Shown here: positions 9,266 to 57,757 of the stretch, in pieces
Position numbering within the stretch: the first letter of the stretch is position 1
How the letters are laid out: each line of letters opens with the position of its first letter
DNA from: a virus
Virus record (IMG/VR): IMGVR_UViG_3300025000_000077
Coordinates: 1-64,000 of that record
Direction: 5' to 3' (one strand)
DNA length: 64,000 nt
The notes under the pieces: generated by a model
What the model was told of the DNA's origin: nothing
What the model saw: the letters and a program-made list of their open reading frames with translations, nothing else
Database searches by the model: none
Program-made: the position numbers and the translations under genes

Positions 9266-9553
9266 TTTTTATGCTCCGTTCTTGAGGCAAACTCGCCAAA
9301 AAACACCTGTATATTATTATACAAGTTGGGATATAAAAAATAGTGACAGTCAAACTTTAAATTAAAAAAAAGAAATTGATAATTAAAAATTAATCACCAA
9401 TATCAAATCCATCAGGCACATTTAAAAACTTTATACTCTCATCTGTCAAAATGTCCAGCTCATATAACAAACTAACCAACATCCGAAGCGCGTTAAGAGT
9501 CTCGCATGGAATCACAATTGAAGGGCGTTTATCCAACTCCTCAGTTTCCATAC

Positions 9554-9949: not shown

Positions 9950-10089
9950 GTTTTTAGCTCCGTTCAGTTTTTTTAAAGGAAAATAGAACGATAAAAATAT
10001 AGGAGGTTTTTATATAAAAGTTTAATGGGTTGGAAAGTGGGAAAAAAAGAAATATGAGGAAACTCACTCTTCGGATCAGACTTTCTTTA

Positions 10090-26363: not shown

Positions 26364-26391
26364 AATAAAAAAAAGAACGGAGCTAAAAAAA

Positions 26392-30266: not shown

Positions 30267-33200
30267 ATGATTATTATCTATGTTTCAAGTACCGAACTGG
30301 ATGCAAATTACAAAGTAGATGGATCAGCGGATCAAGTACAGATCAATAACGCGCTCACGTATGCACATACCAACGGGACCTTCGTCTCTCCAATAACCGT
30401 GTACCTCCGCGGACCGTACATATACGATCTAACAGACAGCCTCTTAGTCGGCTCTAATACGATTTTAACCGGAGATGCAACCGCTATTGTCAGATTACAT
30501 AATTCTGCATCGTGGGGAGCATGGAAGCCGCTAATCAACCAAATTTCAGGCGTGATCCCTCAAAATTTCACACTTTCGAATATCACCCTTGATGGAAATT
30601 ACGCAAATCAGCCTGAATACTCTGCCGGGAATTGGGGCAAAGGGTACTATCCTGGACTCTATTTGCAGGGCACGCTCTCAAACCCCGTTCGAAATGTTAT
30701 AATTCACAATACAATTATAAAAAACATGCTCACCGATGGGGCAAGAATATCCTACGGAAACGGCTTCGAATTTTATAATAACAAAACTATAGAATGTATG
30801 CACGAGGGCGTTTTTGTCCTGCGTTCGTTAAATTGCAACATTTATAATAATGATTTTACCATCAGGACAAATAGCGGACCCCGTTGTTATAACTCTCAGA
30901 ATGTCAATATCTACGGCAATACGATGCGCCCTTATGCGCTTAATTCTGTAGCTGGGAATTTTGGAATCCAGATAGAAGACAATTCAGCACAGGGCGACAT
31001 CATAACAAATAATATCAATTGTTATAATAACACGATAACCGATTGCTGGGGTGGCGGGATCTGGTGTATAGATCTCAGAGGAACGGCGACAAACAAAAAT
31101 ATAAAAATCCACGATAATACGATAACCGGCTGTGGGAGGATCACCACTACCTCGTACAATGCAGGTATTTGTATTCAGGGATTTAATGACATTGAAGTAT
31201 ATAATAATATTATAAAAAACAATTATAACGCAGGAATATTGATCCCGTCGGCCCCGTCTGGTGGATCGGGATATATCTATTATTATGATGATAATGTAGT
31301 TTCTGGCACACTTGACACGCTAAACCCTTCAAAAAGTGCCGGGCACGGCTTCGGAATTGTAAACAGGTATCCTTCAGTTGTAACAGTTGCAGGGCACGGG
31401 AATATTGTCACAGGAAACGTAAATGGTGATTATTATCAAGTGTCGAATATAAATGACGTTTCGACAACTGCACCAATAAAACCAATTCCATCCATTCGCA
31501 TAAATGAAACTGATGAAATTGTAGACTATTATGTGGATAATTATTCTGCATATGTTAACGGATATCCTATCAAAATTTTAGGATACGACGCGGACACCGA
31601 TCAGAGTATTTCAACAGATAAACCGCCGGGGTTCGACGGTTGGGTATTGGGCGATTTCGGCTCAGATGGTTGCTCTATAAACGTTAGGTGCTTTGGATTC
31701 GGAAAACATGACGTCAGACGCGCTGTAGCTGCATGGAAAAAACAGGGCAGGACATTTGTAGAGCTCGGTGGAGATTCTGCAGGCTGGCAGGTCTCAGGAG
31801 TCACACGCGCACACGCATCAAGAAAAGATCTCGACGCTGGAGATATAGTCTCAGATGACGGGCCTAACAATTATAATATTGTTTTTTATTGTGACACACC
31901 CTTTGAAGAGTCTGTTAACAAGCACGTCAGAGCGCGAAAACTTACTTATTCTGGTGAACGGTGGAGTTCGGATAATACCTATGCTGGGAACATTGTAAAA
32001 AATGCCTCTTTTGAGGAATGGACTAGAGATACTACACAGTCGTGGAATTTAAAAACACCGGCCGCATCTGTTAATTTTACATGTGTTGAATTTTCACCAG
32101 ATCTTGAACAGTATTGTGCGGTTGCTGATTCTGGCACAGGAAACAGGATTCAGATTTCTTCCTTTGGCAACGCATGGGCAATCCCTGCAACGAATCCAGC
32201 CAATGTAAATATAAATTGGAAAGGGGCAGCATGGGGAGATACAGTAGGGATAGAATCAACCGGGGACCCTGCTCCCTTTGTTATGGTTTCCTCTGATAAT
32301 TATATTTTAGTATCCTCTGATGATTATATTCTCGTGTCAGGGGATATGAGCACCGCCACTGCTTTACAAAACGGTAGATGGGTTATCGTGGGGTATTCCG
32401 CTGCGACAAATGGGGCAGCATATTCAGAAGACGGGGAATCCTGGACAGCAGGAGTGACACCAAACATAAATCTTGAAGACGTTTGCTATGTTAAGGACAT
32501 CGACTCGGGCATTTACCGCTATATCGCGGTTGCCTCTTCCGGTGCTGATAGAGTAATCTATACAGATGACGGGGGGGAAACATGGACAGCGGTTTCATCC
32601 GCAGATGACGCGGAAACATGGGTTTCAGTTGACTATGCCACTGACATCAAAACGATAGTTGCGGTTGCTTCCTCGGGAAAAATAATGCACTCCGTTGATT
32701 ACGGGATCTCATGGACGCTTGCTACCGCTCCCTCCCAGATCTGGAACGAAGTAAAAAGGGCTGTCTATCTTGGGTTATTTGTAGCCACTTCAACGAATGG
32801 GACTCAGCAGATAGCGACGTCTACGACAGGGGAAAGTTGGACTTTGCAAGATGTGCCATACGGAGGCACTTCCATAGTGCCCGGCGGTGGTGACCTCGAA
32901 ACTATCACGTATTCTACAGATATAGCGTTGCCAGGCATAGTTTATACGTCGGCTGCAACTGAATACACATCCAAAGATACAAGCCTGGAACTCACAACGG
33001 CTCTCCCTGCTCTCACCGGTGGAAATATTTACAGGATTGACCAGATATCTTGCAAGTTGAGGACTTTGCTTGCCGGGAAAGTCGCATACCTGAAAGTTAC
33101 TATTCAGGCAGCGTCTCTGTATTCCGGTGTCGAAACTCAGATAGTAGAATGGACAAATAACACTAGCACATATATCACGAAATCATTGGATCTGGCTCTC

Positions 33201-35123: not shown

Positions 35124-36310
35124 TGCTCTGGTTTTTCCGCCCCCGGATCAGTATTCAAAAACCTAATGGGCAGAAATACTACCCAAAACAAGTTACTGCA
35201 TCAGTGACCGATGCTTATCCTTATTCAGATGCCCCCTATGCCCAAATAGAACTCGCTACGAATAGAAGTCCAGAAACTGCCGAGTACATCAATCCAGTCG
35301 AGGAGGATGATATCGTCAGGGTCCAGGTATCCTGTCGAATGTCGGAAAAGGAAAAATGTGTATTTGTGGATCTTTTTGAGGGTCGAGTCCGGTCCATAGA
35401 TGGGGAGTACAACACAAAAAACAATACTACCGTCTCATGCAGAGGGCACATAGATGAGGCAGCAAAACTTCTTATCGATGAGTCTAAAACGTGGACCGGG
35501 ACTATAGAGGCGAGAACCATTTTAGGCGACCTGGTTACTCCTGCCCGCCATGTTTCCCGACTTACGTGGCTGAATCAGGCTCCTCATGTTGATCAAAGTG
35601 GGGTAGTTAGTTTTACTGATCCCGAATCCGCATATGCAACAAAAGCAGATCAAACTTATTTATCAAGTGTATTCAAGGATCTTGAAAAAGAGTCGGGGAG
35701 CACTTGGAAAATAGGTACTAAGAGCACTTATACGGTGGGAGGCTCACTCGACAAAACGTATCTGACGTGGAAAAAACTTGATACCACACCCACAAATAAA
35801 TACAAAGCGATCCAGGGAACTGCCCGTTATCTAGGTAGCAATTTTGAAATTTCCATTGAAGACCAGGCGACCCAGGTTAAAATAAAAGGGGACACTCCCA
35901 CCAGTGGAACTCAGTACACTGGAACAGCTACGGATGCAACCGCAGTTGCTAGATATGGATACAAAACAGATGTAGACATCTACTCTCAATTACAGAGCAA
36001 TGCGACATGTGCGAGTATTGCTGCAGGTATCCTCCCGTCTAAAGTTTCAGCCAGTATTTCAGGTACTATAAAATTAGTTGGCACACCTGAAGCTCATCCG
36101 GGAGACATGGTTTATGTGAGATCGAGGAGCACGGAATTGAACGGAGCAATTGTCGCAGGGAATTTTAACGTTTATCGCGTCAGACATAATATCACATCGT
36201 CTTCCTATACTACAGAAATACAAGTCGGTGGAATAATAACCGATGCATACGATCTGATAAAAAACATAAAAACAATAGCAGTAACTACAAAATGTAATCA
36301 GGTAAAATAA
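35123..36310 (+). CDS. Baseplate hub/Tal-like tail protein
   Basis: TGATG coupling at 35121-35125; LFEGRV, GTPEAHPGDMV...VYRVRHNI. Confidence 0.65.
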   Translation: MLWFFRPRISIQKPNGQKYYPKQVTASVTDAYPYSDAPYAQIELATNRSPETAEYINPVEEDDIVRVQVSCRMSEKEKCVFVDLFEGRVRSIDGEYNTKNNTTVSCRGHIDEAAKLLIDESKTWTGTIEARTILGDLVTPARHVSRLTWLNQAPHVDQSGVVSFTDPESAYATKADQTYLSSVFKDLEKESGSTWKIGTKSTYTVGGSLDKTYLTWKKLDTTPTNKYKAIQGTARYLGSNFEISIEDQATQVKIKGDTPTSGTQYTGTATDATAVARYGYKTDVDIYSQLQSNATCASIAAGILPSKVSASISGTIKLVGTPEAHPGDMVYVRSRSTELNGAIVAGNFNVYRVRHNITSSSYTTEIQVGGIITDAYDLIKNIKTIAVTTKCNQVK

Positions 36311-36327
36311 AACGGAGCTAAAAAAAC

Positions 36328-40841: not shown

Positions 40842-41240
40842 TCAGTCCCCATCAGTCCCACAAAACTTTGAAAACTCTGCTCCTTTCAAGATGCAGAATT
40901 CTTTTCCGATTACGTCATTAACTTTCATGTATCCGTCATAACTAGACAGGCAATACCATTTATCATACATTGAAATATGTTTACACTTTATTGCTACTAA
41001 TGCCTCTTTTTTATAACGCAGTTCTGGAAATACCATCAATCCTACATTTTCACCATCGTTATTTATAAATGATATATCTGCTCCGTATGGATCTAATTTA
41101 ATGTTTGAAAATCCTGCTTCGGTAAGTTGTTCAATTATAGTTTTCATTGATTTCAATCTCCATTCTTTTGTTCCTTCTTTCCCGCCCTTTGTCCATTGCC
41201 ATTCTACGGTATCAGGCATGGATAGGAGAGGCTTATTCAC
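40842..41240 (-). CDS. Hypothetical protein
   Basis: 132-aa ORF in operon. Confidence 0.6.
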   Translation of the reverse strand: MNKPLLSMPDTVEWQWTKGGKEGTKEWRLKSMKTIIEQLTEAGFSNIKLDPYGADISFINNDGENVGLMVFPELRYKKEALVAIKCKHISMYDKWYCLSSYDGYMKVNDVIGKEFCILKGAEFSKFCGTDGD

Positions 41241-41568
41241 TAAACTTATTCACTTCATTCAACACAAGCTCAGAAACAGATTTTACCATCTTATATTTTC
41301 TCATTAAGTGGTAATCCCAACCTTCCCCAAACTCACATTCACAGACATCAAAATCAGGATCTACTCCATACGGCTGTTCGTCCCAATCGAAATCTGGATC
41401 AGTCATTTTTTACACACACCACGCATCCACTTAATACCGGAATATCTATTTTAACTTCCAAATCTTCACAAAAACCATTTTTCAGACTTTCGCATGAGAT
41501 ACAATTTTTCGATTGTAATATATTGAAACTTTGGGGGTCATCCATTTATGCTCTCCTTTTTTATCCAC

Positions 41569-41757
41569 CTATTTAAGTTTCTTAATAGCTTTTTCTAGGT
41601 CTGTTATATGGGATTCCCACCGCATAAGATCCTCCTCATCGTCTGTTTTGTAGTACCGAACTGAAGCTGGGTCTTTAACCCATTTAACATTTGATTTAAG
41701 CAGATCTAGTTCATTTTGAAGAATTTCTATGGCATATGACATTTTATTCACTCTCAT
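41569..41757 (-). CDS. Hypothetical coiled-coil protein
   Basis: ORF in operon; start possibly MSYAIE. Confidence 0.55.
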   Translation of the reverse strand: MRVNKMSYAIEILQNELDLLKSNVKWVKDPASVRYYKTDDEEDLMRWESHITDLEKAIKKLK

Positions 41758-41887
41758 TTAACTTTAAATTAAAATCTCCCACAGTCCCAATCGGTACAGG
41801 GAGCACATTTATTATATTCTCCGATGATTTGTTGTCTTCATCTTTGAGTAATATTCGTGTTGGTCTCATTTTTATTATTTTAGACAT

Positions 41888-42118
41888 TTATTCCAACTCC
41901 TTACCTGTCCACTGATAATATTCAGGATCGTCAGAAGGTGCGTTTTCGACCTTCTCGATAATTCCTTTGTCAATCAATGCTCTTAAGGTGTTTCCTGTGA
42001 AACCTGGGACGGATTTCAATTCAACTGAAGTAAACTTTCTTCCATTCTCCCAAGCATTCAACTGTTTAATTTTGTCTAATGTAGATTCTTGTATTCCTGT
42101 CCGTGTCATAGTTACCAC
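41888..42118 (-). CDS. Small winged-helix-like protein
   Basis: FTSVEL...TLRALIDKGIIEK. Confidence 0.55.
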   Translation of the reverse strand: MVTMTRTGIQESTLDKIKQLNAWENGRKFTSVELKSVPGFTGNTLRALIDKGIIEKVENAPSDDPEYYQWTGKELE

Positions 42119-42319
42119 ATTGTAGCTTAGTTGCTATGTTACTATACAACTTATAGGTATAAGTACTTAACTGAAAATAATAACATGTGAATAAAAGTAA
42201 CAATTCAAAATGAAACTCAAAAATAGTTTTATTACCGAGAGTAATACAAAAAAACAGGTTGGTATGTAATTATAATACAAAACGTATTACTCGGATGTGG
42301 TTTTATAAAAAGTGAAAAA

Positions 42320-43021
42320 TCAAGAAGAACATTCTTCGGATTTCAGATTATTATATTCTTCTTTTGTATAATAACATTTATAATCATATTTCTCTTTTAA
42401 AATTGTCTTGAAATAATCTTCCCATCTATCTCTATCAAAGTTTGTTTTCCCATGACATTCTTCACAAAGTGGAACCATCATCACTTTAGAACTGTCACAA
42501 CATGCATTTTTATTATAGTCTACGTGATGAACATATAACATCTTACGATTGTCTTCTTGTGGTTTCCCACATAGAAAACATTTATTCCCAAAAAACGATC
42601 TCACCCTTCTTTTTAAATCAGCATTGAATTTACTGCAGTATATTCCATAATTAACTCCACCACGCCAGTTTTTAGAAAGCCACCCTGTATTTAACAACCC
42701 ATTCTTCTCCCGTATGGGTTTCATAGCAATGCGAACACATTTATCACTACAATATTTCCGATTTCCTTCGAAACTATAATTTATGTAAAATATTGTGTTG
42801 CATACAGGACACTCAACTGCATTGCATTTATACACCGTTTTGTGTTTTCCATTTTCGCGGTCTCTAACATCTTTTGGTAAATCTAAAAATGATATTTCCC
42901 CTGCTTTACATTTTTTTAACAGGTATCTATCCATGCAGTTTTCAGAACAAAAATGAAGTTCTTTATATATATGATCACACATATTGATTACAGGTTCTCC
43001 ACAGCACAAACAATAAATCAT
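42320..43021 (-). CDS. Zn-finger/HNH endonuclease-like protein
   Basis: CFLCG...VHHVDYNK...VPLCEECHGK plus N-terminal FCSENC and YCSDKC motifs. Confidence 0.8.
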   Translation of the reverse strand: MIYCLCCGEPVINMCDHIYKELHFCSENCMDRYLLKKCKAGEISFLDLPKDVRDRENGKHKTVYKCNAVECPVCNTIFYINYSFEGNRKYCSDKCVRIAMKPIREKNGLLNTGWLSKNWRGGVNYGIYCSKFNADLKRRVRSFFGNKCFLCGKPQEDNRKMLYVHHVDYNKNACCDSSKVMMVPLCEECHGKTNFDRDRWEDYFKTILKEKYDYKCYYTKEEYNNLKSEECSS

Positions 43022-43023
43022 AT

Positions 43024-43683
43024 TTAAGCCTCTCTGTTTTTCTTTACCCTCTCTTCATCATCCCATCTTTCAACCCACCGATAAAGCGTAGATGCCGGGA
43101 TCTGCATCACTCTAGCAATCTGAGCAGTTTTTAACCCCTGTGTTTTCCACTTAAGATATTCTTTCTTGTCCGGCTGTCTCTCCGGTCTACCTATTACTTT
43201 TCCTTCCTCTCTTGCCCTCTCGATGCCTAACTTTGTTCTTTCAACTAGAGAGTTCCTTTCAAGTTCCGCAAACCAACTAAATAAAGCAGAAAATATATTT
43301 CGTATTCCAGGGATGTCTGTAATCTTAGTCCATGTTTCATTATTTGATAGTGAAATTATTACAGTGCCGTATGATTCGATCTCTATGAACAGTTGTAAAG
43401 ATTCGATAGATGTTCTTCCAAGTCTCGATATCTCAAAAATATATAACTTATCAACTTCTCCATTTTGCACACGTTCAAATATATGTTTAAATCCATTCCT
43501 TTTCTTTGCAGGCGTTAAACTGGAAACACCTTCGTCACCGTAAATGTTTGAAGGTTCTAACCCAAGCTCACGCAGTTTACGCAATTGATTTGAAATGTTC
43601 TGTTCATCTCTTGATGTTCTGGCATAACCCAAAGACACTTTGTTTTTTTCTTCGATTACCATAACTATATTTATGGTTACCAT
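43024..43683 (-). CDS. Small serine recombinase (resolvase/invertase) with C-terminal HTH
   Basis: GYARTS..EQ...Q, DEGVS, SRLGR, AELER...ERTKLGIERAREEGKVIGRP, IPASTLYRW; start may be 43662. Confidence 0.93.
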   Translation of the reverse strand: MVTINIVMVIEEKNKVSLGYARTSRDEQNISNQLRKLRELGLEPSNIYGDEGVSSLTPAKKRNGFKHIFERVQNGEVDKLYIFEISRLGRTSIESLQLFIEIESYGTVIISLSNNETWTKITDIPGIRNIFSALFSWFAELERNSLVERTKLGIERAREEGKVIGRPERQPDKKEYLKWKTQGLKTAQIARVMQIPASTLYRWVERWDDEERVKKNREA

Positions 43684-43830
43684 ACTATTTAAACATTGCT
43701 CAATCGTTTAAAGTAATATAAAACGGTCGTTTATGGTAATATATGACGGCTTGTATAATTGAAATATGATATAAAAAAGATATAAATCCATTCTAAACAT
43801 CGGCGGTTTTATATAATATTACAATAAATC
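43656..43830. promoter_or_regulatory. Candidate res-like site: palindromes upstream of the resolvase
   Basis: ACCATA-N8-TATGGT (43658-43677), TTTAAAC-N11-GTTTAAA (43688-43712), AAACGGTCGTTT (43721-43732). Confidence 0.4.
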
Positions 43831-44128
43831 AAATACATTAATTATAATCCAAATTATTAATCTCCCCAAATACCCAACCCACACCACGTCCCACACAAAA
43901 ACTCTACCCTAAACAAACAAAAAACCATACAAAACGCATAGCAAAAAATAACCGATGCCGTTTTAATGTTCAAGGAGTATAAAACAGTATAAGAAACTTA
44001 ACACCCAAAATAAAATAAAAACCTTAAAATACTATGAAGAAATATTAAATGTGCCTCAGTGTACTACCCCACATTGAGACTCAAATCCTCTGAAAAACAG
44101 ACCTCTTCTTCCTTAGAAAAACGAGCTG

Positions 44129-44207
44129 AAAAACCGCCAGGAGTTGAACGGAGCTAACGTTAAGAAACCTGGCGGTATCTCATGCAGTGTGCAAAACACT
44201 CTGCAAC
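44129..44207 (-). ncRNA. Predicted antisense sRNA: two hairpins, second loop complementary to the GAACGGAGCTA translation-start motif
   Basis: BRE/TATA-like CCAAAATAATATATA (44243-44229, minus); hairpin 44205-44183; 9-bp stem 44176-44168/44141-44133 with loop UUUCUUAACGUUAGCUCCGUUCAACU; followed by a U-tract. Confidence 0.6.
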
Positions 44208-44341
44208 TACTATTTTATGTTCTACCCCTATATATTATTTTGGTATTATTTTATTATATCCTCGGATATCCATTTCTGAAGTTATAATAATATATAATTA
44301 TACCGCAGCCGTTTTTAAAAAAAAGAAAGTTGAATTAATTT

Positions 44342-44536
44342 TTATAAGTCGGGCTGATTCCAATAATCAGGCTCTTTATCGGGAGTCTGTGGGATGAATT
44401 CAACATTATACAGACATGTCCTGCCGTCTGGTGTATCCTCCGAGGTGGTGGGATATATCTTTTGCATCGCCCTGAAACTGGTAAAAGGGATTTGAGAGCA
44501 GTGCTTATGCCAATAGAGAGGGATATCAAGGGGCAT
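44342..44536 (-). CDS. Small Cys-containing hypothetical protein
   Basis: Coupled directly after 44537-44995. Confidence 0.5.
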   Translation of the reverse strand: MPLDIPLYWHKHCSQIPFTSFRAMQKIYPTTSEDTPDGRTCLYNVEFIPQTPDKEPDYWNQPDL

Positions 44537-44995
44537 TTAATTTGTCCTCCCGGAGAGTGTCGTATCCTCCCTGGATACTGCGAGCAGTTTGTCAATTTTT
44601 GAAATAATTCCGTCGATGTTATACGGGCGGACAAACGTTGTGTTTTCATTCAGGGGGTCTGAGTCAATTTCAAACCCCTCCTCTATGACATTATCCGGGG
44701 CTGTGTCAGTCACGCGCCCGGTGAGTTGATCCCACTCCGTAATAAACGATCTTGCCAGGTCGTGCTCACTGCCTGTTATTGTGTCGAGTGAGACGAAACC
44801 ACCGGTTACGGCATCATAGATGGACCATTTGTCTGACGGTTTTGAGCTGTCGACTTGCAGTCCGAGTCTGGCGTTAAGTTGATAATTTCCGGTTACTCGG
44901 CTGGGGTTGATTTTAAAATCTCTATGCTTCTCTGCCATTTCGATAAGATGATTTTCTAACATTAGTTCCATGATGTGTGCCCCCGTTATACCCAT
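44537..44995 (-). CDS. Hypothetical protein
   Basis: ORF in operon; start probably MELMLEN. Confidence 0.6.
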   Translation of the reverse strand: MGITGAHIMELMLENHLIEMAEKHRDFKINPSRVTGNYQLNARLGLQVDSSKPSDKWSIYDAVTGGFVSLDTITGSEHDLARSFITEWDQLTGRVTDTAPDNVIEEGFEIDSDPLNENTTFVRPYNIDGIISKIDKLLAVSREDTTLSGRTN

Positions 44996-45378
44996 TTTAA
45001 AGCGGCAGTTGGTTTGACATCAGTGGTCTTCCTGAACTCCAGAACTTCAGGATGAGTCTCAGCGTAGGTATCAATGGCCTTGGTATCATATGATGTCCTC
45101 ACAGCTCCTTTTCTGTATTTGAGCTCTACAAAATCACATTCAAAGTTTGACTGAGATTCAATTATGTAGTCCTTTGCTTTTTGGATCAAGTTCTCTGCGT
45201 ATTCCTGCTGCGGTTTGATATTATCCAGTGTGTGATACGCAACTTTAAGAGTGTTTTTTAAAAGATCGTCGGTTGCGTCCTCTTGTGTTTTCCCAAAGCC
45301 CGCCGGACTAACTCCGATATTAATAAAATCTTCAAATGTTGCACACCAATCTGAACCATCTAAAAATATTTTTATCAT
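44986..45378 (-). CDS. Hypothetical phage protein (C-terminus weakly Gp157/Gam-like)
   Basis: Preceded by the GAACGGAGCTA motif; KYRKGAVRTSYD...RKTTDVKP. Confidence 0.55.
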   Translation of the reverse strand: MIKIFLDGSDWCATFEDFINIGVSPAGFGKTQEDATDDLLKNTLKVAYHTLDNIKPQQEYAENLIQKAKDYIIESQSNFECDFVELKYRKGAVRTSYDTKAIDTYAETHPEVLEFRKTTDVKPTAALKWV

Positions 45379-45379
45379 G

Positions 45380-45535
45380 TTAATTAGCTCCGTTCTGGAT
45401 CTGATCTAATAATTCCTCATTCTCTGTTTTCAGTCTCTCTAATTCTATTTTGAGCTGTTCAATTTCCTCGTCTTTTTCATCCAGTTCGCTCTCAAGATCA
45501 CTGAGCATGTCTATTATTTTAGATATTTGCACCAT
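45380..45535 (-). CDS. Small acidic coiled-coil protein (51 aa, not in ORF track)
   Basis: MVQISKIIDMLSDLESELDEKDEEIEQLKIELERL..., motif 7 nt upstream of ATG. Confidence 0.6.
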   Translation of the reverse strand: MVQISKIIDMLSDLESELDEKDEEIEQLKIELERLKTENEELLDQIQNGAN

Positions 45536-45551
45536 TGTTATAGCTCCGTTC

Positions 45552-46328
45552 TTATTTTCTCCTTATCCCTAATGTTCGCTCATAATCCTCAAATCTCGAC
45601 TTTATGATTTCTTTTCGGTCATCTGATCGGATTACTACACCCTCGGCTAACCCACTGTGACCATTTATGCCCGCATGTGTTGTCCTGTACGACTGTAAAA
45701 AATCATATGTTTCTTCGATGCCTGTCGGGATATCGCGCCCGTATAGGTTCCCGCAAAAGGGTACTTGTTCGAGATTGAAACGTATACAAAACTCAGACCG
45801 GCCTTCTGTGTTAAAAAACGACTGCCCGCCATTGTCTCTCCAATTTGCGATTTGTTCACGAGGCATTTTAAGAAGTGATATATATTCAATTGGGTTTATA
45901 TACATCACATCAAAAACTCTAACATCGTAGGTTTTCGAGTCAGTGTACTGTTTTGTAGCCTGGAGTTTACCGCCGTACAACTCCGAAAATATTGTATAAA
46001 TGCCTTTTGGGATATTGTTCTGTATATCAATAGATATTTTTTTGCAGTCGGTTAGAGAATTGTCCACGATGTCAAGGGATGGATTTATTATCCTGTCTCC
46101 TTCAGCGTGGAGCAATTCTTCCCGTGATCCGATCACGTAATCGCAATAAGATGAATTTATAAAAATCTTTCTCGTGTTTGTCCCATCTATTTTTTCAGAT
46201 ACGTGATATATCCTATCTGGATCGAGTGTGACTGATAATTCTGGCTGTAACCTGCCCCGGTTGCCCATTTTGTGATATGTTTTTATTTCCGGGTATTTAG
46301 TCATCGAATTTAGTTTGTTAAAATCCAT
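45552..46328 (-). CDS. RNA ligase (Rnl2-like nucleotidyltransferase)
   Basis: Motif I SEKIDGTN, III FSELYG, IIIa VFDV, IV AEGVVIR, V IIKSR; start reassigned to 46328 from the RBS motif. Confidence 0.85.
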   Translation of the reverse strand: MDFNKLNSMTKYPEIKTYHKMGNRGRLQPELSVTLDPDRIYHVSEKIDGTNTRKIFINSSYCDYVIGSREELLHAEGDRIINPSLDIVDNSLTDCKKISIDIQNNIPKGIYTIFSELYGGKLQATKQYTDSKTYDVRVFDVMYINPIEYISLLKMPREQIANWRDNGGQSFFNTEGRSEFCIRFNLEQVPFCGNLYGRDIPTGIEETYDFLQSYRTTHAGINGHSGLAEGVVIRSDDRKEIIKSRFEDYERTLGIRRK

Positions 46329-46495
46329 TGTTATAGCTCCGTCCATATACTCTAATTTTAAAATTGACAACTGTTAAACGATCATTTAAATGATCAATTT
46401 TCCTTGAGTCCCTTTCACTCTGCAAACTTTTGAGAATCGCTGCCTTCTCGTCGATTAGATATTGTTTCCTAAGTGGGATCTCAACGCATTGCAAT

Positions 46496-46759
46496 TTATT
46501 CACTCCCTACAAAGTAGGCCCGCCCGCTTTCAAGCATCTCAAACCATGCCCTTGAATCTACAAAATACTTCATATCCCCGGATGTAGCCGGACGATATTT
46601 ACCGGTTGAGTTTTCGAGGTCTTCTGCGAGGAGGGGACGTTTTGAGAACTCCTCTATGTATAGGTTTCCTGATTTGATCAGTGCCCACATTACCCGGATA
46701 CAGTGGCTCAGAATACCACCATCCCGAGATAAGCTTCTGATTTTGAATACCGCAGGCAC
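46496..46759 (-). CDS. Hypothetical protein
   Basis: ORF in operon; start uncertain. Confidence 0.45.
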   Translation of the reverse strand: MPAVFKIRSLSRDGGILSHCIRVMWALIKSGNLYIEEFSKRPLLAEDLENSTGKYRPATSGDMKYFVDSRAWFEMLESGRAYFVGSE

Positions 46760-47064
46760 AGAGGCAATTCCTGCCCGAATAACGTGTCATACATGATTGA
46801 GCAATGATCACAGGATAATTCGTTGCATGAGACTGTAGGGAGTATCAGAGAGGCTATTACCGGGAGTTCCATCAAGCTCTCACCTTCGTTTTACATCTTC
46901 CCTTCTTGGACGATGTGAATATTACCCATATTGAATTGAAATACATCATTGTTTTTTGTTTTCGGGCAGCCATCTTCAAAACACCCTTACCCTAAGTTTC
47001 TTTTTGATACCACATGCCCGGTATCTTCTCTCTGCAAGTCGGCGGCCAATGAGGTTTGTAGGGA

Positions 47065-47217
47065 TCATGCGCTGATCCCTCTTAGGTATATAGTATCTAC
47101 AGCGCATTTGTCGCCGTCATCAAATTTAACAAGGGTTTCGTCTTCGTTTCCCTGTAGAACAGTACCGCATGTTTTCATCTTTCTGAATTGTACTCTGGTT
47201 CCAATTTTGAAACTCAT
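47065..47217 (-). CDS. Small SH3-like beta-barrel protein
   Basis: FKIGTRVQF...GTV...LVKFDDG; motif 7 nt upstream. Confidence 0.55.
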   Translation of the reverse strand: MSFKIGTRVQFRKMKTCGTVLQGNEDETLVKFDDGDKCAVDTIYLRGISA

Positions 47218-47355
47218 TTTCATAGCTCCGTTCTTTTTGTGAGGATCACGTTTTTCTATACTAATACTACACACTTATGACATATAAACTTTACTATTAA
47301 TCGATTATTAATGGGTTGTTGGAAGATTTACAGTTGATTATCAATAGATTTATAT

Positions 47356-47553
47356 GTGATAAAAGCATATAGGATACATATGGCAGCGATGGATAAACAG
47401 ATAGTTGTCAGTGATTTTGTTGACGAGTATCTAAAAAACATGAAGGACGACGAAAGTCATTCGAACATTGATTCAGTAATAAGAACACTGATTCATGAAA
47501 GTGAAGCGTATAGAATGATGAAACCGAAGAGAAAAGCGAGGAAACAAGAATGA
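47356..47553 (+). CDS. Ribbon-helix-helix-like regulator
   Basis: KQIVVSDFVDEYLKNMK...IDSVIRTLI; sits at a divergent promoter; start probably 47380. Confidence 0.6.
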   Translation: MIKAYRIHMAAMDKQIVVSDFVDEYLKNMKDDESHSNIDSVIRTLIHESEAYRMMKPKRKARKQE

Positions 47554-47846
47554 AAAATGAAAACAACACACTTACTGCTTGCAAGCCAGATGATCAAACT
47601 GAATACATAAACAAAATAATAGGGAACTTTGAATATATTAAAAAAGATATTAACAAAGTACAGAAATTGTTGGGTGATTCTCCACAGAATAAATTAAGAA
47701 GCTTTGAAAATATCTCGAAATCCAGATTATATGCTAAAGAGATAAGGGAATGTGCAGATTGGATTATTAAGCAGACTGTACAGCTTGAAGAAGATATAAT
47801 TATATGGGGAGATTCGAGGAATGAGAATCTCACGGACTCAACCTAA
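47550..47846 (+). CDS. Hypothetical protein
   Basis: ATGA overlap with the upstream gene. Confidence 0.55.
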   Translation: MKNENNTLTACKPDDQTEYINKIIGNFEYIKKDINKVQKLLGDSPQNKLRSFENISKSRLYAKEIRECADWIIKQTVQLEEDIIIWGDSRNENLTDST

Positions 47847-47889
47847 AACATATGTGGTATAAATTAAAAGTTGAACGGAGCAAACAATT

Positions 47890-48045
47890 ATGAAAGTCGC
47901 ATATCTCAGAAAAGCAAACCCAGACGCCGTAAAAAGAATAACATCCTATCCGATCCAAAAGCACGGCAATCTATTTTTCGAGGGATTATTTATCTCCGCG
48001 CTGATTGCCGACCCACTCAGAATGAATCTAATAGAGGCGGTTTGA
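47890..48045 (+). CDS. Small hypothetical protein (51 aa, not in ORF track)
   Basis: MKVAYLRKANPDAVKR..., motif 8 nt upstream. Confidence 0.5.
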   Translation: MKVAYLRKANPDAVKRITSYPIQKHGNLFFEGLFISALIADPLRMNLIEAV

Positions 48046-48181
48046 ATGCCCGCTGAGGATTCTGATTTCTGGAATAATCCTGAATACTGTTTTTTCAGAC
48101 CCGTTGGGTTATGTGAACATCCAGAAACAAGGGCGATGGAGAGTGTAATAAGAGAAATTGTCCATTTGAGGATGGGATATA

Positions 48182-48607
48182 ATGACTGAAATTAGAGTTT
48201 TAGCAGTCAGGCAACCCTGGGCAAGTCTCATTGTAGAGGGTTTAAAAACAATTGAAGTGAGAAGCAAACCTACGAATATTCGTGAGAGGGTGGCGATTTA
48301 TGCGAGCCGTAACTACAACAGAGAAGATTTCCTAAAGTTGCGGGAAAATCCAAATTATATTATGAGATCATGGGATTTTGGAAAGATTTTAGGAACTGTT
48401 GAAATTGTTGCTTCGTCTGGTTGCAACGATGAAGTTGAATACGCACTGAATAAAAGAGAACATTCAGCACCAGATGAGTATTTCAATGAAGGAAAAACCT
48501 ATTTTTGGCATTTAAGAAGACCTGTTAAATTCGAAACACCGATTCCCTACAAACCACCAAAGGGCGCGGTTGTGTGGTCAAAAACAGAACTACCGGAGGG
48601 ATATTAA
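48182..48607 (+). CDS. ASCH domain protein
   Basis: LAVRQPWASLIVEGLKTIEVR...VAIYAS...GKILGTVEI. Confidence 0.92.
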   Translation: MTEIRVLAVRQPWASLIVEGLKTIEVRSKPTNIRERVAIYASRNYNREDFLKLRENPNYIMRSWDFGKILGTVEIVASSGCNDEVEYALNKREHSAPDEYFNEGKTYFWHLRRPVKFETPIPYKPPKGAVVWSKTELPEGY

Positions 48608-48849
48608 TGCCAGCATTTGAATTAGAAACTGAACTTTTTGATTATTATAGAAAACATGCCGGGAAACTAGGATGTAAACAGTGCTTTGACGAAAAGAAGG
48701 ACGAGATTAGGGCAATGAACCGAGAGGGGGCGGACGGGGGCCCTAACTGTCTATGTAAGGTCGATACCCCCTGCCCATGTGATGACGTTGAAATAGATCT
48801 CCTCGTAGATGGGATATGTTATTGTGAGATTTTCGTGTTGGATTGCTAA
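48607..48849 (+). CDS. Ferredoxin-thioredoxin reductase catalytic-subunit-like Fe-S protein
   Basis: GGPNCLCK...PCPC...DGICYCEIF matches the FTR CPC/CPC/CHC triad. Confidence 0.7.
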   Translation: MPAFELETELFDYYRKHAGKLGCKQCFDEKKDEIRAMNREGADGGPNCLCKVDTPCPCDDVEIDLLVDGICYCEIFVLDC

Positions 48850-48901
48850 GAATTTTGAAATTACCGAATGATTTTTTTGAAAACTGAACGGAGCTATTGA
48901 T

Positions 48902-49426
48902 ATGATAATTGCATTCGAAGGCGCGGACAAATTAGGAAAAACAACTCAGGCTAAATTATTGGCCGAGAAATTGAACTGTAAATATATTAAATTCCCGAAT
49001 GAAGAATTATACAGTGGGAAAATAATAAGACAGATTATTAATAAAGAACTTCCATTCGAGCCGGTTTCGTTTCAAGCGTTGCAGACTATGAACCGGTTAG
49101 AAACCTTTGAAAATATCGATTTCGAACAGTTGTATATATTCGACAGATACAAACTATCCGGGGTTGTTTACGGGCTGGCTGACGGCCTCCCGGAAGAATG
49201 GATCAGAGAAGTTTGTGATTTGTTGCCGGACCCTGATTACACGATCGTTTTTACCGGCGAATCGTATGGAAAGGACTCGGATATCTACGGTGAAAAACAG
49301 TATAAGATCAGACAGTTGTATCATAATGAAATTGTTGTATATAGATATCCGTGGATTGATGTGAGTGGCCGAACCATTGAAGAGGTACATGGTGAAATTT
49401 TAAAGATGGTGGAGGGGGTATTATGA
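48902..49426 (+). CDS. tmk: Thymidylate kinase
   Basis: IIAFEGADKLGKTTQ, KFP, FDRY..S...Y, PDPD. Confidence 0.92.
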   Translation: MIIAFEGADKLGKTTQAKLLAEKLNCKYIKFPNEELYSGKIIRQIINKELPFEPVSFQALQTMNRLETFENIDFEQLYIFDRYKLSGVVYGLADGLPEEWIREVCDLLPDPDYTIVFTGESYGKDSDIYGEKQYKIRQLYHNEIVVYRYPWIDVSGRTIEEVHGEILKMVEGVL

Positions 49427-50154
49427 CCCTCACGATAATCAAAACTTTTAGTTCAGATGATATTGATCAACTTAACGAAGAATTGTGGAGAACGATATAT
49501 CAAAAGGGGAATCCTCTCGTATTCGGGAAGCAGGACGAAACTAAAGCCGCTAGAGAAGTTTTTGCAATAATTCAGTTGTATGGGAAGGCTCTTGAGAAAT
49601 TATACAATGGTGAGCTTCCTAAAGGGTGGATGTTTGGGAAAGAAGCCAATAAGATTTATATTGAGATGCTGGAAGATCCTGATAGAGGAGAACAGCCTTA
49701 TACTTACGGTGAACGGCTTCATGGATACACTACTTGGAGTGAAACATCTGAATATGTTTCTTACGTGGATCAGATGGATGAATGCAAGATAGAGCTTGAA
49801 GAAACTATTAAATCAGGGATTCAAAATAATAGAATTTGTGGAGTTATTTGGAATCCGCTTGATATCTTTCTGAAAAATCCGCCTTGTTTTAATTGGTTCC
49901 AGCTCCGCACATCAGAAACTAATAAAGTATCTCTCCGTGTTCTATTTAGATCACACGACTACGGAAACGCTAATTTTGCGAATTTTGGAGCCATTATAAG
50001 AGCATTCCAGGATGAAGTAATCAGGCCAGCCGGGGGAATCCTCGAAGAGTTGATTTGTGTTTCAACGTCTGCCCATTTGTATAATAATGATTTAGATATG
50101 GTTGAAAATCTCATTGGGAAAGTTCCTGAGCATATCAGGAGGCTCTTAAAATGA
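49423..50154 (+). CDS. thyA: Thymidylate synthase (archaeal ThyA type)
   Basis: YTYGERL, WNP..D, PPC, FRSHD, ANF, SAHLY. Confidence 0.9.
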   Translation: MTLTIIKTFSSDDIDQLNEELWRTIYQKGNPLVFGKQDETKAAREVFAIIQLYGKALEKLYNGELPKGWMFGKEANKIYIEMLEDPDRGEQPYTYGERLHGYTTWSETSEYVSYVDQMDECKIELEETIKSGIQNNRICGVIWNPLDIFLKNPPCFNWFQLRTSETNKVSLRVLFRSHDYGNANFANFGAIIRAFQDEVIRPAGGILEELICVSTSAHLYNNDLDMVENLIGKVPEHIRRLLK

Positions 50155-53289: not shown

Positions 53290-53373
53290 ATTATAGTATA
53301 TACTATAATAATTAATTATAGTAAGTACTATAAAAAATAAATATTCAAATAACGTTGGAACGGAGCTAATAAA

Positions 53374-53883
53374 ATGGGAATAGACGAAGTTAACAGCACC
53401 CGTGGAAGAAAGAAAAAGAACACCGGGCGCGAAACACAACATGCGATATATATTGATCCGGATGTATGGGAAGCGGCTGGCCATCTGCCGGAATCCAGAC
53501 CCGATATCATCAGGCAAGCTTTTCTTGATAAAATTTCTTATTACCAGAGTGACCTCCCTAAATTAAAGTGGCAATTGGAGGACGTTCGGAAACAGATTCA
53601 ATCGTTTTTAGCTACAGAGGCAGTTATAGTTTCTCGGATTGAACAACTCGAATCGAAAGCCATTTTTGATGTAAGTGAACGAGAGAAAGACGCCGAGTTG
53701 AAGGAAACTGCGATAAAGGAAACCCTAACGATGTGCAGGGCGTTCAAAAAGAGCATGGGTTATCATCATTATTCGAAACTATCCGAGTTGTCAGGGTTTG
53801 AGGCCGCCAGGATAGAGGTTTTTTTGAAGGATTCGAAGTTCAGGCCATCCGAAGAGGCAGTGCGTGTTTTTTATACGGGGTGA
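53374..53883 (+). CDS. RHH/coiled-coil protein co-transcribed with MCM
   Basis: HAIYIDPDVWEAA...RPDIIRQAF plus coiled coil; motif 7 nt upstream. Confidence 0.6.
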   Translation: MGIDEVNSTRGRKKKNTGRETQHAIYIDPDVWEAAGHLPESRPDIIRQAFLDKISYYQSDLPKLKWQLEDVRKQIQSFLATEAVIVSRIEQLESKAIFDVSEREKDAELKETAIKETLTMCRAFKKSMGYHHYSKLSELSGFEAARIEVFLKDSKFRPSEEAVRVFYTG

Positions 53884-53887
53884 GCTG

Positions 53888-55966
53888 ATGGACAACTACC
53901 ACGACACAAAAGAAAAACTCAAAACTTTTTTTAGTCCTGGTGCATATGTTAACACGGGCAAAAACTGTAAAGATTTGAAAGCGAAGCAGTATTGGGACGA
54001 CCTGCTGGCTTTAAGTTCGAAATACCCATATGAAAAAAGTTTATATGTTGAATACAGGCACATTGAATATTTTAATAGAGAAATAGCTGACCGTTTGATA
54101 TCAGCCCCGGATGAGTGGTTCGTGGCTGCAACTGATGCTATAGCTGAGATGTCTTTTCCTACGGTGGATATGCCTAATATAAATGTCCGTGTTATTGGGT
54201 TGCCTCTTGATTTCGAAGTCGGGATATCAAAACTGAGGGGGGGACATTTGGATCGTTTCTTGGCTATCCGGTGTGTAATTTCAAAGGCTTCTGAAGTGCG
54301 CCCTGGTTATGAAGTGGCTGCTTACCAGTGCATGAGGTGCGGGCATGTTACAAAAGTTGAACAGTTGAAATACACTGACATGCGGCAAGAGCCGTATTCA
54401 GGCTGTGAAAATGACACATGCGGGAAGAAGGGCCCTTATAAAATATCAGAAGAAGAGTCTGTAAAATTTGATCACCAGTATTTGAAAATCCAGGAACCAA
54501 TCGAAAACCTCCGAGGTAAACAACCTGAATTTCTTAATGTATCATGCGCCGATGAAATAGCTGGAAGGTCGAACCCGGGTGATAAAGTAATCATAACTGG
54601 AATTTTAAAGGGGAAGCCAAAGACTGTAAAAGAGGGGGTAACTAAATATCTGGATTTCGTTTTTGTTGCCAATTCCATTGAAAAATCTGATACTGATTAT
54701 GAAAATCTTGAGATCCTGCCTGAAGAGGAAGCGCAGTTCAGACAGTGGGCAAGTGAGGGAGTATTAAAAGAAAAAATATTGAGGTCCATAGCTCCTACGA
54801 TATTTGGTCTGGAAGAAGTCAAATTGGGTTTGGCCCTGCAGATGGTCGGTGGTGTGCCAATTGATTTCGAAGACGGGACACGGAAAAGAGGAGATATCCA
54901 TATAATGTTAGTCGGTGATCCCGGCGTAGCAAAAAGTCAGTTATTAGAGTTCATTGCTAAGTATTCCCCGCGCGCCGTTAGTTTTTCAGGAAAATCAACC
55001 AGTGAGGCGGGCCTAACAGGTGGGGCCGTGAAAGATGAATTAGATGGTAAATGGTGGATTCAGCCGGGAGCCCTAACGCTTGCAGACGGTGGTGTATGTT
55101 GCGCTGACGAACTTGATAAGATGAAGACGGGGCAATTAGGATCAATCCACGAAGCACTTGAGCAACAGATGGTCCATATTAATAAAGTTGTTAAGGCTGA
55201 CCTGTGGACCCGGACTGCTTTCTTAGGAGCTGCAAATCCCAAATACGGGCGTTATGATAAATATACTCCAATAGCGGAACAGATCACACACGGAGATGCA
55301 TTTATTTCGAGGATGGACTTGCTTTTTGTCCTGCTTGATACTCCGAATGAAGCGACGGATAGGAGGCTCGCAAAGCATATTTTAGGGACTCTACGCGGGA
55401 AGGCAGACATATCAGAGCCGGGGATGAATCTTGAGCTTCTTAGGAAGTGTGTGGCTTATATTAAAACTCATGTGTTCCCGGTACTTACGGACGAATCCGA
55501 GGAAATGATAATTAACTTCTTTGTAGGGACCCGGGTTGCAGCTAATGGACGGACTGACACTGTTCCAATTACCGCGAGAACACTTGAAGCAGCTTTCCGG
55601 CTTGCGACTGCAAACGCCAGGATGAGACTATCAGATACTATAACTGAAGAAGACGCCGAAGCTGCTGTGAAATTATTATACTCTAATTTAAGGAGTGTGG
55701 GAATTGACCCGGAAACGGGGGAACTGGACGCAAACGTTATCGCGTGCGGGACTTCCATGAGTCAAGCGAAAAAACTCAGGAAATTATGTACTATAATTAA
55801 ATCACTTTCCGAGAGAGACACGGCGAAATATCAGGCTGCTCGAAAAGAGGAAATTATAGATAAGTGCATTGGAGAAGGGATTAAAGAACCTGAGAATTTG
55901 CTCAAAAAACTGAAGCAGCAGGGAGACATCTTCAGCCCGGAAGAAGGATATTATAAAGTCATGTAA
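53888..55966 (+). CDS. mcm: MCM replicative helicase
   Basis: Zn finger CMRC..C..C, RGDIHIMLVGDPGVAKSQ, GALTLADGGVCCADELDKM, HEALEQQ, AANP, SRMDL, ITARTLE; start at 53888 after GGGGTGA. Confidence 0.97.
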   Translation: MDNYHDTKEKLKTFFSPGAYVNTGKNCKDLKAKQYWDDLLALSSKYPYEKSLYVEYRHIEYFNREIADRLISAPDEWFVAATDAIAEMSFPTVDMPNINVRVIGLPLDFEVGISKLRGGHLDRFLAIRCVISKASEVRPGYEVAAYQCMRCGHVTKVEQLKYTDMRQEPYSGCENDTCGKKGPYKISEEESVKFDHQYLKIQEPIENLRGKQPEFLNVSCADEIAGRSNPGDKVIITGILKGKPKTVKEGVTKYLDFVFVANSIEKSDTDYENLEILPEEEAQFRQWASEGVLKEKILRSIAPTIFGLEEVKLGLALQMVGGVPIDFEDGTRKRGDIHIMLVGDPGVAKSQLLEFIAKYSPRAVSFSGKSTSEAGLTGGAVKDELDGKWWIQPGALTLADGGVCCADELDKMKTGQLGSIHEALEQQMVHINKVVKADLWTRTAFLGAANPKYGRYDKYTPIAEQITHGDAFISRMDLLFVLLDTPNEATDRRLAKHILGTLRGKADISEPGMNLELLRKCVAYIKTHVFPVLTDESEEMIINFFVGTRVAANGRTDTVPITARTLEAAFRLATANARMRLSDTITEEDAEAAVKLLYSNLRSVGIDPETGELDANVIACGTSMSQAKKLRKLCTIIKSLSERDTAKYQAARKEEIIDKCIGEGIKEPENLLKKLKQQGDIFSPEEGYYKVM

Positions 55967-55973
55967 GGTACAT

Positions 55974-56120
55974 TTCCAGTGGAGTTATATTATATTATAT
56001 TACATTGCTTTCTAATTAATTATAGTTATAGGTATTACTATAATTAATTAATATACATCCTATAGATAGTGTTTTTTCACTTAATTTTTTTCTTTAGTAA
56101 GTTGAGTACATTAATTATAG
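55974..56120. other. Canonical ORB core TTCCAGTGGA followed by an AT-rich tract
   Basis: TTCCAGTGGA 55974-55983, directly after the mcm stop. Confidence 0.4.
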
Positions 56121-56163
56121 TATGTACTATAATCAATTAAAAACCGATGAACGGAGCTACAAT

Positions 56164-56659: not shown

Positions 56660-56985
56660 TAATGATTCTTAAAGCCCTTCTAAAACTCCTTAAAATAATA
56701 ATCCTCCATCCAAGACGCTGTGAAAACTGCCAATATTGGAGATCACCGAAGTGTTCACAGCCGTTATACTATAACGTGGTCCCCCTCTCAAAGTGCGGCA
56801 AGTGGGCACGGAGAAGCCGCTGAGTTAATTTTTACTTGAAAATGGTATGAATGTATTCGGGGTTATTTGATACGGTTAAAACAGCTTAGAATCAATATTA
56901 CTTTTATTTGAGTTCATTACGTAATTGTATTTATATGATTACAGTAAGTTATTTATAGTATTACGTAGTAGTATTAGTATAGAGG

Positions 56986-57729: not shown

Positions 57730-57757
57730 TCCTCGTAAAAAGAACGGAGCTAAAACA

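Follow-up and report, generated by a model that had tools for sequence, protein, structure and literature searches.

Why a virus should carry, in the loop of an isolated hairpin, a single inverted copy of a motif that otherwise stands in front of its own start codons is the question raised by a locus at 44093-44324 (minus strand) of IMG/VR virus record IMGVR_UViG_3300025000_000077. We analysed the first 64 kb of this 75,260-nt record (hereafter the window; the virus itself is referred to as G000), and use the term tag for the 11-mer GAACGGAGCTA on ribosome-binding sites. To our knowledge, gene regulation in archaeal tailed viruses is almost unknown, and we know of no regulatory small RNA (sRNA) with defined targets described for a methanogen virus. 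A preliminary description of this DNA had proposed that a minus-strand sRNA presents the antisense of the tag and could thereby act on many viral genes at once. The answer that we favour, with moderate confidence and on the strength of the comparisons presented below, is that the locus encodes an independently transcribed RNA of ~80-115 nt that would base-pair with ribosome sites bearing the tag and most likely repress them, so that much of the virus is probably controlled, at the level of translation, by one small RNA.

The tag and its antisense copy in a hairpin loop

The tag is present in 11 exact and 6 one-mismatch copies, 17 in total, against an expectation of 0.73 and a maximum of 3 in 100 shuffles, and its 9-mer core, GAACGGAGC, is the most over-represented 9-mer of the genome. 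About 15 of these copies end 4-7 nt before a start codon (Table 1), and every copy except one, hereafter the orphan, lies in the sense of the local genes. Tagged genes occur in the lysis/depolymerase, head, tail, early, nucleotide and replication modules alike. The orphan (44146-44156) is the sole antisense copy, and a strongly folded hairpin displays it in its loop. A whole-loop RNAduplex scan of possible targets proved unspecific, with many G-rich matches, and contiguous-complementarity counts were used instead. By this measure, 14 sites match the loop by 9 or more contiguous complementary nucleotides and have an ATG 3-10 nt downstream, or about 15 when the TTG-start copy at 13903 is included, which is close to, but not quite, the 16 or so genes that had been proposed. 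The longest contiguous complementarity, 13 nt at 47869-47881, is exactly the pairing reported there. The core duplex between loop and tag is calculated at -17.9 kcal/mol, or -18.9 kcal/mol with the frequent extra A, as compared to -3.7 kcal/mol for GGAG:CUCC.

The tag GAACGGAGCUA(A) holds a weak GGAG Shine-Dalgarno (SD) core, and the untagged genes of the same virus use AAGGAG(G)/AGGAGG/GGTGA-type sites. Because both these untagged genes and the tag-less relatives described in the next section make use of GGAGG/GGTGA/AAGGAG(G) sites, the tag is, as judged from the genomes compared, not the general ribosome site but an extension of a weak GGAG core that is private to this lineage.

Read along the minus strand, the hairpin locus has the following anatomy. 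A BRE/TATA-like element reading CCAAAATAATATATA is followed, 22-25 nt past the TATA box, by a predicted transcription start at ~44204-44208, and then by a first hairpin at ~44210-44184. In the main hairpin, ACCGCCAGG (44176-44168) is perfectly paired with CCUGGCGGU (44141-44133), enclosing a 26-nt loop, UUUCUUAACGUUAGCUCCGUUCAACU, which holds the antisense box UAGCUCCGUUC at 44156-44146. The apical heptaloop UUAGCUC (44157-44151) is unpaired in both the minimum free energy (MFE) and the centroid structures, and is closed by an inner 4-bp helix between 44161-44158 and 44150-44147. The 96-nt stretch folds at an MFE of -35.3 kcal/mol (z = -6.0, 200 shuffles). Three T5 tracts follow, the first T of the run at 44133-44129 forming the last pair of the stem; we take these tracts as archaeal-type termination signals, which would give an RNA of ~80, 90 or 115 nt depending on the tract. 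The BRE/TATA-like element, the two hairpins with the T tract, and the loop as an exact reverse complement of the start-site motif had all been part of the preliminary description, and each was recovered here. Equally confirmed is its statement that the orphan has no plus-strand start codon at ribosome-binding-site (RBS) distance: the next plus-strand ATG lies 25 nt behind the motif.

Conservation and co-variation in related viruses

Searching IMG/VR with the capsid protein yielded three relatives, namely G001 (52 kb, major capsid protein 93% identical), G002 (a 15-kb fragment) and G003 (72.7 kb, with terminal repeats, capsid protein 69% identical); a capsid-protein profile found no relatives beyond these three. 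The element recurs in G001, in the homologous intergenic region, and in G003, at the same position, where the leftward early operon ends. The order of parts in G001 is the same as in G000, running from an oligo-T after the upstream gene (T7/T6+T7 tracts in G001 and G003) through a TATA-like GGAAATAATATATA, a 5' hairpin and the main hairpin, with stem CGGCCAGC/GCUGGCCG, to CUGUUUUU(U). In the alignment of G000 with G001, 11/11 tested pairs are kept: a C-G pair has become G-C at one position, and at two others A-U is replaced by G.U, which pairs on the minus strand only. The G003 stem is an unrelated, again perfect, 9-bp CAGGAGUGA/UCACUCCUG that sits behind AAAAATATATATTA and ahead of CUGUUUUUU, and carries in its loop the orphan tag copy of that genome, at 63653-63660; its TATA-like box reads GGAAAAAAATATATATTA, and CUGUUUUU(U) once more follows the hairpin. 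The 5' hairpin is present with a different sequence in G001 and G003. What the three viruses share is a 7-8-nt apical loop (A)UU(A/U)GCUC, closed by a short helix that holds the CG of the antisense box. The G003 hairpin could not be aligned with the others by MAFFT except at the loop core, and therefore no three-way covariance model was built.

The variable positions of this loop follow the tag. Among the tags of G000, 11 read GCTA and 2 GCAA, and its loop reads UAGC; G001 has 10 copies, 7 of them GCAA (GAACGGAGCAA) and 3 GCTA, and its loop, UUUGCUCCGUUC, reads UUGC and is the mirror of this majority tag. In G003, the tag is TCGGAGCTA, with the pattern (A/T)T-CGGAGCTA (20 copies, 16/20 of which are followed by a start codon after 3-6 nt); the loop, UAGCUCCGA, mirrors G003's own tag. 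Counting sites with at least 10 nt of complementarity, the G000 loop finds 15 in its own genome and 5 and 4 in the two others; the corresponding numbers are 8, 5 and 4 for the loop of G001, and 11, 5 and 1 for that of G003. It is thus strongly supported by these comparisons that each loop tracks the tag variant of its own genome, tag and loop changing together, which is the outcome of the covariation check that the preliminary description had put forward: three viruses keep the hairpin, and each loop mirrors its own tag.

The element is also unique within each genome. Both strands were scanned blindly for hairpins with a GC-rich stem of 8 bp or more and a loop of 10-36 nt, a TATA-like octamer at most 110 nt upstream and a T5 at most 60 nt downstream; exactly one match each was returned in G000, G001 and G003, always this element. 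Besides the three elements, a relaxed hairpin search around GCTCCG found AU-rich chance stems only. Seven further metagenome contigs, identified with a ThyA-like profile, carry AAGAACGGAGC(T/A) before start codons; none of them reaches the sRNA locus. More distant relatives found via the ThyA-like gene (L145, L146), or via the 245-aa gene upstream of the element in G001 and G003 (L210-L212), have GGAGG/GGTGA-type sites and carry neither tag nor hairpin. Among viral contigs, no relatives were found via the RNA ligase gene, nor any match to the exact sRNA fragment; the tag + ATG pattern gave single chance matches only, among the matches listed, and only G001 was real among the 43 matches to the pattern TGAGATAC..GCTCCGTTC. 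The small protein encoded upstream of the sRNA led to only one other cluster.

No open reading frame (ORF) at the locus is conserved on either strand between G000, G001 and G003. The longest frame of the minus-strand RNA has 7 codons and occurs in G000 only. On the plus strand, the ATG behind the orphan is 25 nt away in G000, or more. The ORF that begins there is not kept in G003, where a stop follows at once, and between G000 and G001 the frame changes, so that the TATA-box DNA common to both is read differently. A small plus-strand ORF was thus rejected, its frame not being conserved. Rejected as well was an archaeal C/D box sRNA: G000 and G001 have UGAGAUAC instead of RUGAUGA, and no CUGA at the 3' end, and the only box-like Rfam match, to snoU61 (E = 7.6), lies elsewhere in the gap and is a chance match.

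Two further features of the locus were noted in the relatives. A block AAGGAAG(AAA)AAGAGGTCTGTTTTT behind the hairpin (44093-44115, minus strand) is common to G000 and G001 (~1590-1625 in L128), its counterpart in G003 being a purine-rich run and then CTGTTTTTT; this block may be part of the RNA 3' end or of a terminator. In G003, the 5' hairpin (63690-63724, minus strand; 3690-3724 in L142) holds a sense tag-like UUCGGAGCUUG, which, if it pairs with the antisense loop of the same RNA, may be an internal competitor or a duplication relic.

It is at this point that a purely structural explanation has to be considered, in which the hairpin would be a terminator or 3'-end stabiliser of the leftward operon, or else a cruciform, recombination or packaging site at the DNA level, with the loop sequence as a relic ribosome site. 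The hairpin does lie downstream of the operon and ahead of T tracts, a simple terminator scan flags part of it, and recombinase genes follow on the same strand, of the serine type at a distance of 0.45 kb in G000 and of the tyrosine type at 4 kb in G003 (59224-59691, minus strand), with neither in G001. However, the operon has its own T8 after the stop codon, likely the terminator of this operon and placed upstream of the putative sRNA promoter, and a conserved TATA-like box stands between this T8 and the hairpin. Because the T8 tract and then the TATA-like box lie ahead of the hairpin, in the same order in G001 and G003, the hairpin is not the terminator of the leftward operon, and this candidate was rejected; so was a recombinase site, as adjacency to a recombinase is not conserved, with none in G001 and with types and distances that differ. 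Nor would a relic be expected to persist as an exact 10-11-mer in three viruses that can no longer be aligned in their stems and flanks, or to follow the tag variant of each genome, and the strict sense orientation and fixed start distance of the tag point to a role at the RNA level. We therefore regard a purely structural hairpin as highly improbable.

Strand, proposed mechanism and probable direction of control

Several features favour the minus strand as the functional and independently transcribed one. The genes around the locus run on this strand, and a TATA-like box and T tracts are conserved on it in G000, G001 and G003, with the T8 tract before the TATA box, all of which are sequence predictions. 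The minus-strand folds contain G.U pairs that become A.C mismatches on the plus strand, and their MFE is lower in 3/3 viruses, with z-scores (minus/plus) of -6.0/-4.2 for G000, -3.2/-2.7 for G001 and -4.4/-3.1 for G003. We infer from these features that 44093-44243 would be an independent minus-strand non-coding RNA gene, comprising a TATA box, a 5' hairpin, the main hairpin and oligo-T tracts. With regard to the multi-target sRNA idea of the preliminary description, its pairing part has thus gained comparative support from loop and tag, its strand and independent transcription being supported by features of the sequence only; the lysogeny, immunity or timing switch proposed there is conjectural.

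A functional plus strand is also conceivable. In that case the hairpin would display a copy of the tag as a decoy or operator, titrating a reader of the tag such as an RNA-binding regulator of translation encoded by the virus, similar to T4 RegA, or the ribosome, and tag and loop would co-vary since both follow the same protein. Read on the plus strand, the orphan is indeed an exact sense copy; folding of this strand likewise places the tag in the loop and is significantly stable (z = -4.2, -2.7 and -3.1), and co-variation of loop and tag is equally expected. This explanation nevertheless has to account for local transcription being on the minus strand, with the TATA-like box and the T5 tracts conserved there only and no plus-strand T5 after the hairpin in G000, for the G.U pairs and the two A-U to G.U changes that turn into A.C mismatches, and for the better fold of the minus strand in each of the three viruses. 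Furthermore, it requires an extra tag-binding factor, and no conserved candidate gene adjoins the element. A plus-strand decoy is, in our assessment, distinctly unlikely.

Returning to a minus-strand RNA, its UUAGCUC and the adjoining CGUUC are exactly complementary to the virus-private tag GAACGGAGCUA(A), which suggests the following course of events. The exposed heptaloop would first contact the private 3' half of the tag (GAGCUAA), and pairing would then invade the weak 4-bp inner helix until a duplex of 11-12 bp and -18 to -19 kcal/mol covers the ribosome-binding site. Such a duplex would outcompete the 4-bp GGAG:CUCC contact with 16S rRNA and thus block initiation, and its reach to 4-7 nt before the start codon would correspond to an occlusion geometry. 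With CUCC partly held in the inner helix, the seed would be the private GAGCUAA, and GGAG sites of the host would thus probably be spared. Control could also spread along operons via gene overlaps: as tagged genes overlap the next gene in the pairs 169-aa gene/MCM and thymidylate kinase/ThyA-like, downstream genes would be affected too.

Pairing in vivo, if it occurs, need not lead to repression. The minus-strand RNA could pair with the tag and activate or stabilise the tagged mRNAs, for instance by shielding short leaders from 5' exonucleases through pairing at the 5' end, or by opening an inhibitory structure, which would make the tag a licence for expression private to the virus. All of the evidence for pairing between loop and tag applies equally here, and many tags lie ~25-40 nt behind TATA-like boxes, as judged by eye, so that the tag may be almost the whole of a short 5' leader. 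In addition, M. mazei sRNA154 is reported to activate nrpA and repress glnA2 with the same loop (PMC11456600). Against this stands the classical occlusion geometry of a duplex that extends over the GGAG core to within 4-7 nt of the start codon. Moreover, a site locked in a helix of 11-12 bp would be inaccessible to the 30S subunit, and the A-rich leaders show no evident structure that would need opening. Activation therefore appears unlikely overall; once pairing with the tag is assumed, we infer repression to be clearly the more probable outcome, with activation retaining a sizeable minority share.

A number of observations weigh against repression by a minus-strand RNA, and these should be considered together. 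A plus-strand RNA would show the tag itself in the same loop, folding nearly as well. The weak inner helix sequesters 4 nt of the antisense box (CGUU), so that only UUAGCUC is fully exposed. The tag at 13693 lies 8 nt behind the annotated ATG 13711 and not before a start, and a TATA-like box is very close to the tag at 47873, so that this tag may fall outside the mRNA. Promoter and terminator were judged by eye against the archaeal consensus, without an archaeal promoter model. The sample comprises three instances of the element, with co-variation on two variable positions, at which G000 and G001 differ by one nucleotide. Finally, the sequencing runs found to carry window positions 41000-50000 are four DNA runs from one groundwater study, and no RNA run.

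If repression by pairing is correct, one short RNA and an 11-letter tag would connect the lysis, head, tail, nucleotide and replication modules through ~15 entry points. This is a simple hypothesis that can be tested by compensatory mutations in the genetically tractable Methanosarcina. It also points to a general design, consisting of a private ribosome-site tag and a mirror RNA, and the tag/RNA pair could serve as an orthogonal translational switch in methanogen synthetic biology.

The virus, its host and known regulatory systems

The record is a free virus contig, assembled from groundwater metagenomes, and the locus is identical in independent contigs from two samples. The preliminary description had framed the relatives as Methanosarcina proviruses; for this free contig of 75,260 nt, provirus status is unsupported, and genome contigs searched with the ThyA-like profile and with the disaggregatase-like protein gave no match and hence no provirus. 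Searches of GenBank phages by blastn and tblastn gave no relatives. The IMG/VR entry describes the record as linear and 72% complete; its last 125 nt (75136-75260) are a repeat of nt 6-130, the first 5 nt being different, which could reflect a circular assembly, terminal redundancy or a repeated gene start.

In addition to the genes listed in Table 1, the products encoded in the window include beta-helix tail proteins, thymidylate kinase, a ThyA-like protein, an RNA ligase and DUF1699. Across 14 control genomes, the disaggregatase family was matched only in Methanosarcina acetivorans. Gene content together with this match indicates a head-tailed archaeal virus, probably of Methanosarcina.

Table 1. 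Tag copies at genes, parts of the hairpin locus and selected genes and domains of the window.
Feature	Position	Strand	Context or basis
Tag variant GAACGGAGCAT	9271-9281	-	5 nt before ATG 9265, disaggregatase-related beta-helix protein (8057-9265)
Exact tag	9955-9965	-	5 nt before ATG 9949, DUF1699 protein (9554-9949)
Exact tag	13693-13703	-	in-frame codons 3-6 of 471-aa ORF (ATG 13711), mRNA 5' end
Exact tag	13903-13913	+	4 nt before TTG 13918, gene 13885/13918-14946, head module
Exact tag	26375-26385	+	6 nt before ATG 26392, major tail protein
Tag variant AAACGGAGCTA	36310-36320	+	7 nt before ATG 36328, beta-helix tail spike or fibre protein
Exact tag	45385-45395	-	6 nt before ATG 45378, 130-aa protein, internal to leftward operon
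Exact tag	45541-45551	-	5 nt before ATG 45535, 51-aa coiled-coil protein
Tag variant GGACGGAGCTA	46334-46344	-	5 nt before ATG 46328, RNA ligase gene
Exact tag	47223-47233	-	5 nt before ATG 47217, first small gene of leftward operon
Tag variant, 13 nt contiguous complementarity, AGTTGAACGGAGC	47869-47883	+	6 nt before ATG 47890, first gene of rightward operon
Exact tag	48886-48896	+	5 nt before ATG 48902, thymidylate kinase (end overlapped by ThyA-like gene)
Exact tag	53358-53368	+	5 nt before ATG 53374, 169-aa gene overlapping MCM start (53864)
Exact tag	56149-56159	+	4 nt before ATG 56164, 47-aa ORF
Exact tag	57742-57752	+	5 nt before ATG 57758, 65-aa ORF
T8 tract	44317-44324	-	18 nt past stop codon (44344-44342) of last gene of leftward operon
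BRE/TATA-like element CCAAAATAATATATA	44229-44243	-	by-eye comparison with archaeal TATA consensus
5' hairpin	~44184-44210	-	predicted folds
Main hairpin, perfect 9-bp stem and 26-nt loop	44133-44176	-	predicted folds and blind scan
Antisense box UAGCUCCGUUC	44146-44156	-	plus strand reads GAACGGAGCTA
Three T5 tracts	44133-44129, 44121-44117, 44097-44093	-	sequence
Major capsid protein	15585-16550		
Major tail protein	26392-27099		
Large terminase subunit	59069-60343		
Archaeal MCM helicase	53864-55966		
Small serine recombinase, C-terminal HTH	43024-43683	-	
HNH-like protein	42320-43021	-	
Disaggregatase-related domain	8156-8608	-	within 402-aa lysis or depolymerase candidate
Disaggregatase-related domain	31008-31463	+	inside 1618-aa tail protein

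Some further observations concern the surroundings of individual entries in Table 1. A TATA-like box lies ~25 nt before ATG 13711, and the mRNA of this 471-aa ORF may be leaderless, or its start may be misplaced. The G000 serine recombinase, a candidate invertase or integrase, and the HNH-like protein come immediately behind the sRNA locus and adjoin tail-fibre genes, and this recombinase neighbourhood fits lysogeny control only loosely. The region 47300-47870, where divergent operons of small genes begin, contains the minimum of the cumulative GC skew, and the two operons carry tags at 47223 on the minus strand and at 47873 on the plus strand; it is likely an early control region or origin. 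A replication origin at the hairpin locus itself was rejected, the GC-skew turn and the divergent promoters lying instead at ~47.3-47.8 kb. Clusters of the palindrome TTATAGTA..TACTATAA at 53290-53335, 56036-56135, 56767-56780 and 56960-56985, which bracket the 169-aa gene, MCM and the small genes behind MCM, are candidate origin-recognition or operator repeats.

As regards known RNA families, a cmscan of the whole window against Rfam at gathering thresholds gave 0 matches, and a permissive scan of 44093's surroundings (43950-44350, E up to 10) gave chance matches only (E at least 3.6), none of them to C4 (RF01695). Our literature search found no paper describing such a system of tag and mirror RNA in an archaeal virus. 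By its properties, the element resembles the class of trans-encoded sRNAs that mask ribosome-binding sites: its loop is complementary to such sites (14 sites, with UUAGCUC unpaired), and both compensatory change and co-variation of seed and target are seen among the three genomes.

The tag resembles ordinary Shine-Dalgarno/16S pairing in having GGAG at SD distance, and its flanks GAAC and CUA are not complementary to the archaeal 16S rRNA 3' end, which we take to be ...GAUCACCUCCU. In Firmicutes, anti-SD sRNAs with C/U-rich loops, such as the hairpins of S. aureus RNAIII and RsaE/RoxS, repress many mRNAs with one RNA through a loop complementary to the SD region. Those RNAs pair with the generic SD (UCCC with GGGA) and variable flanks, whereas the seed here would be the private GAGCUAA, within an exact 11-12-mer limited to the virus's own genes. 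T4 offers a parallel at the level of proteins, RegA being a translational repressor and RegB an endoribonuclease that cuts GGAG; both are encoded by the virus, target the ribosome-binding regions of many of its own mRNAs and time their expression, but they are proteins, and the element described here is an RNA. No homologue of RegA or RegB was noticed in the virus, although no search aimed at one was made.

Closer to the likely host genus are the structured sRNAs of M. mazei, whose loops mask ribosome-binding sites. There, sRNA41 is reported to affect several ribosome sites within polycistronic mRNAs, and loop 2 of sRNA154 to mask the glnA2 ribosome site (PMC11456600), so that the presumed host would be capable of regulation of this type. 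Unlike the viral element, these RNAs are cellular, regulate metabolism and have targets without a shared identical 11-mer.

The nearest parallel in a virus is the c4 RNA of P1/P7, which, at ~77 nt, pairs through its loops around a ribosome-binding site and blocks translation, differences between loop and target defining P1 versus P7 heteroimmunity (review, PMC12197685). The element is like c4 (Rfam C4, RF01695) and the related P4 CI RNA in its size, in the display of the complementary sequence in a loop, and in the position of the target. It differs in that c4 acts on one transcript (ant) and uses two loops, whereas here ~15 dispersed genes carry the tag and the element has one loop, as well as in its archaeal host, TATA promoter and oligo-T termination, and it is without a sequence or structure match to Rfam C4. 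One may speculate, as a tentative extension that we consider doubtful, that tag and mirror RNA form a virus-private address system for translation, with the RNA as a genome-wide determinant of immunity or compatibility in the manner of c4. In this event, a resident genome would shut off all genes bearing the tag, its own as well as those of incoming relatives with the same tag, the drift of tag and loop (GCUA, GCAA, U-CGGAGCUA) would make heteroimmune lineages of Methanosarcina viruses, and the life cycle of an archaeal virus would, for the first time, be seen to be under an RNA-based master switch. The lineage-specific variants of loop and tag seen in the three viruses are, in any case, reminiscent of the heteroimmunity between P1 and P7.

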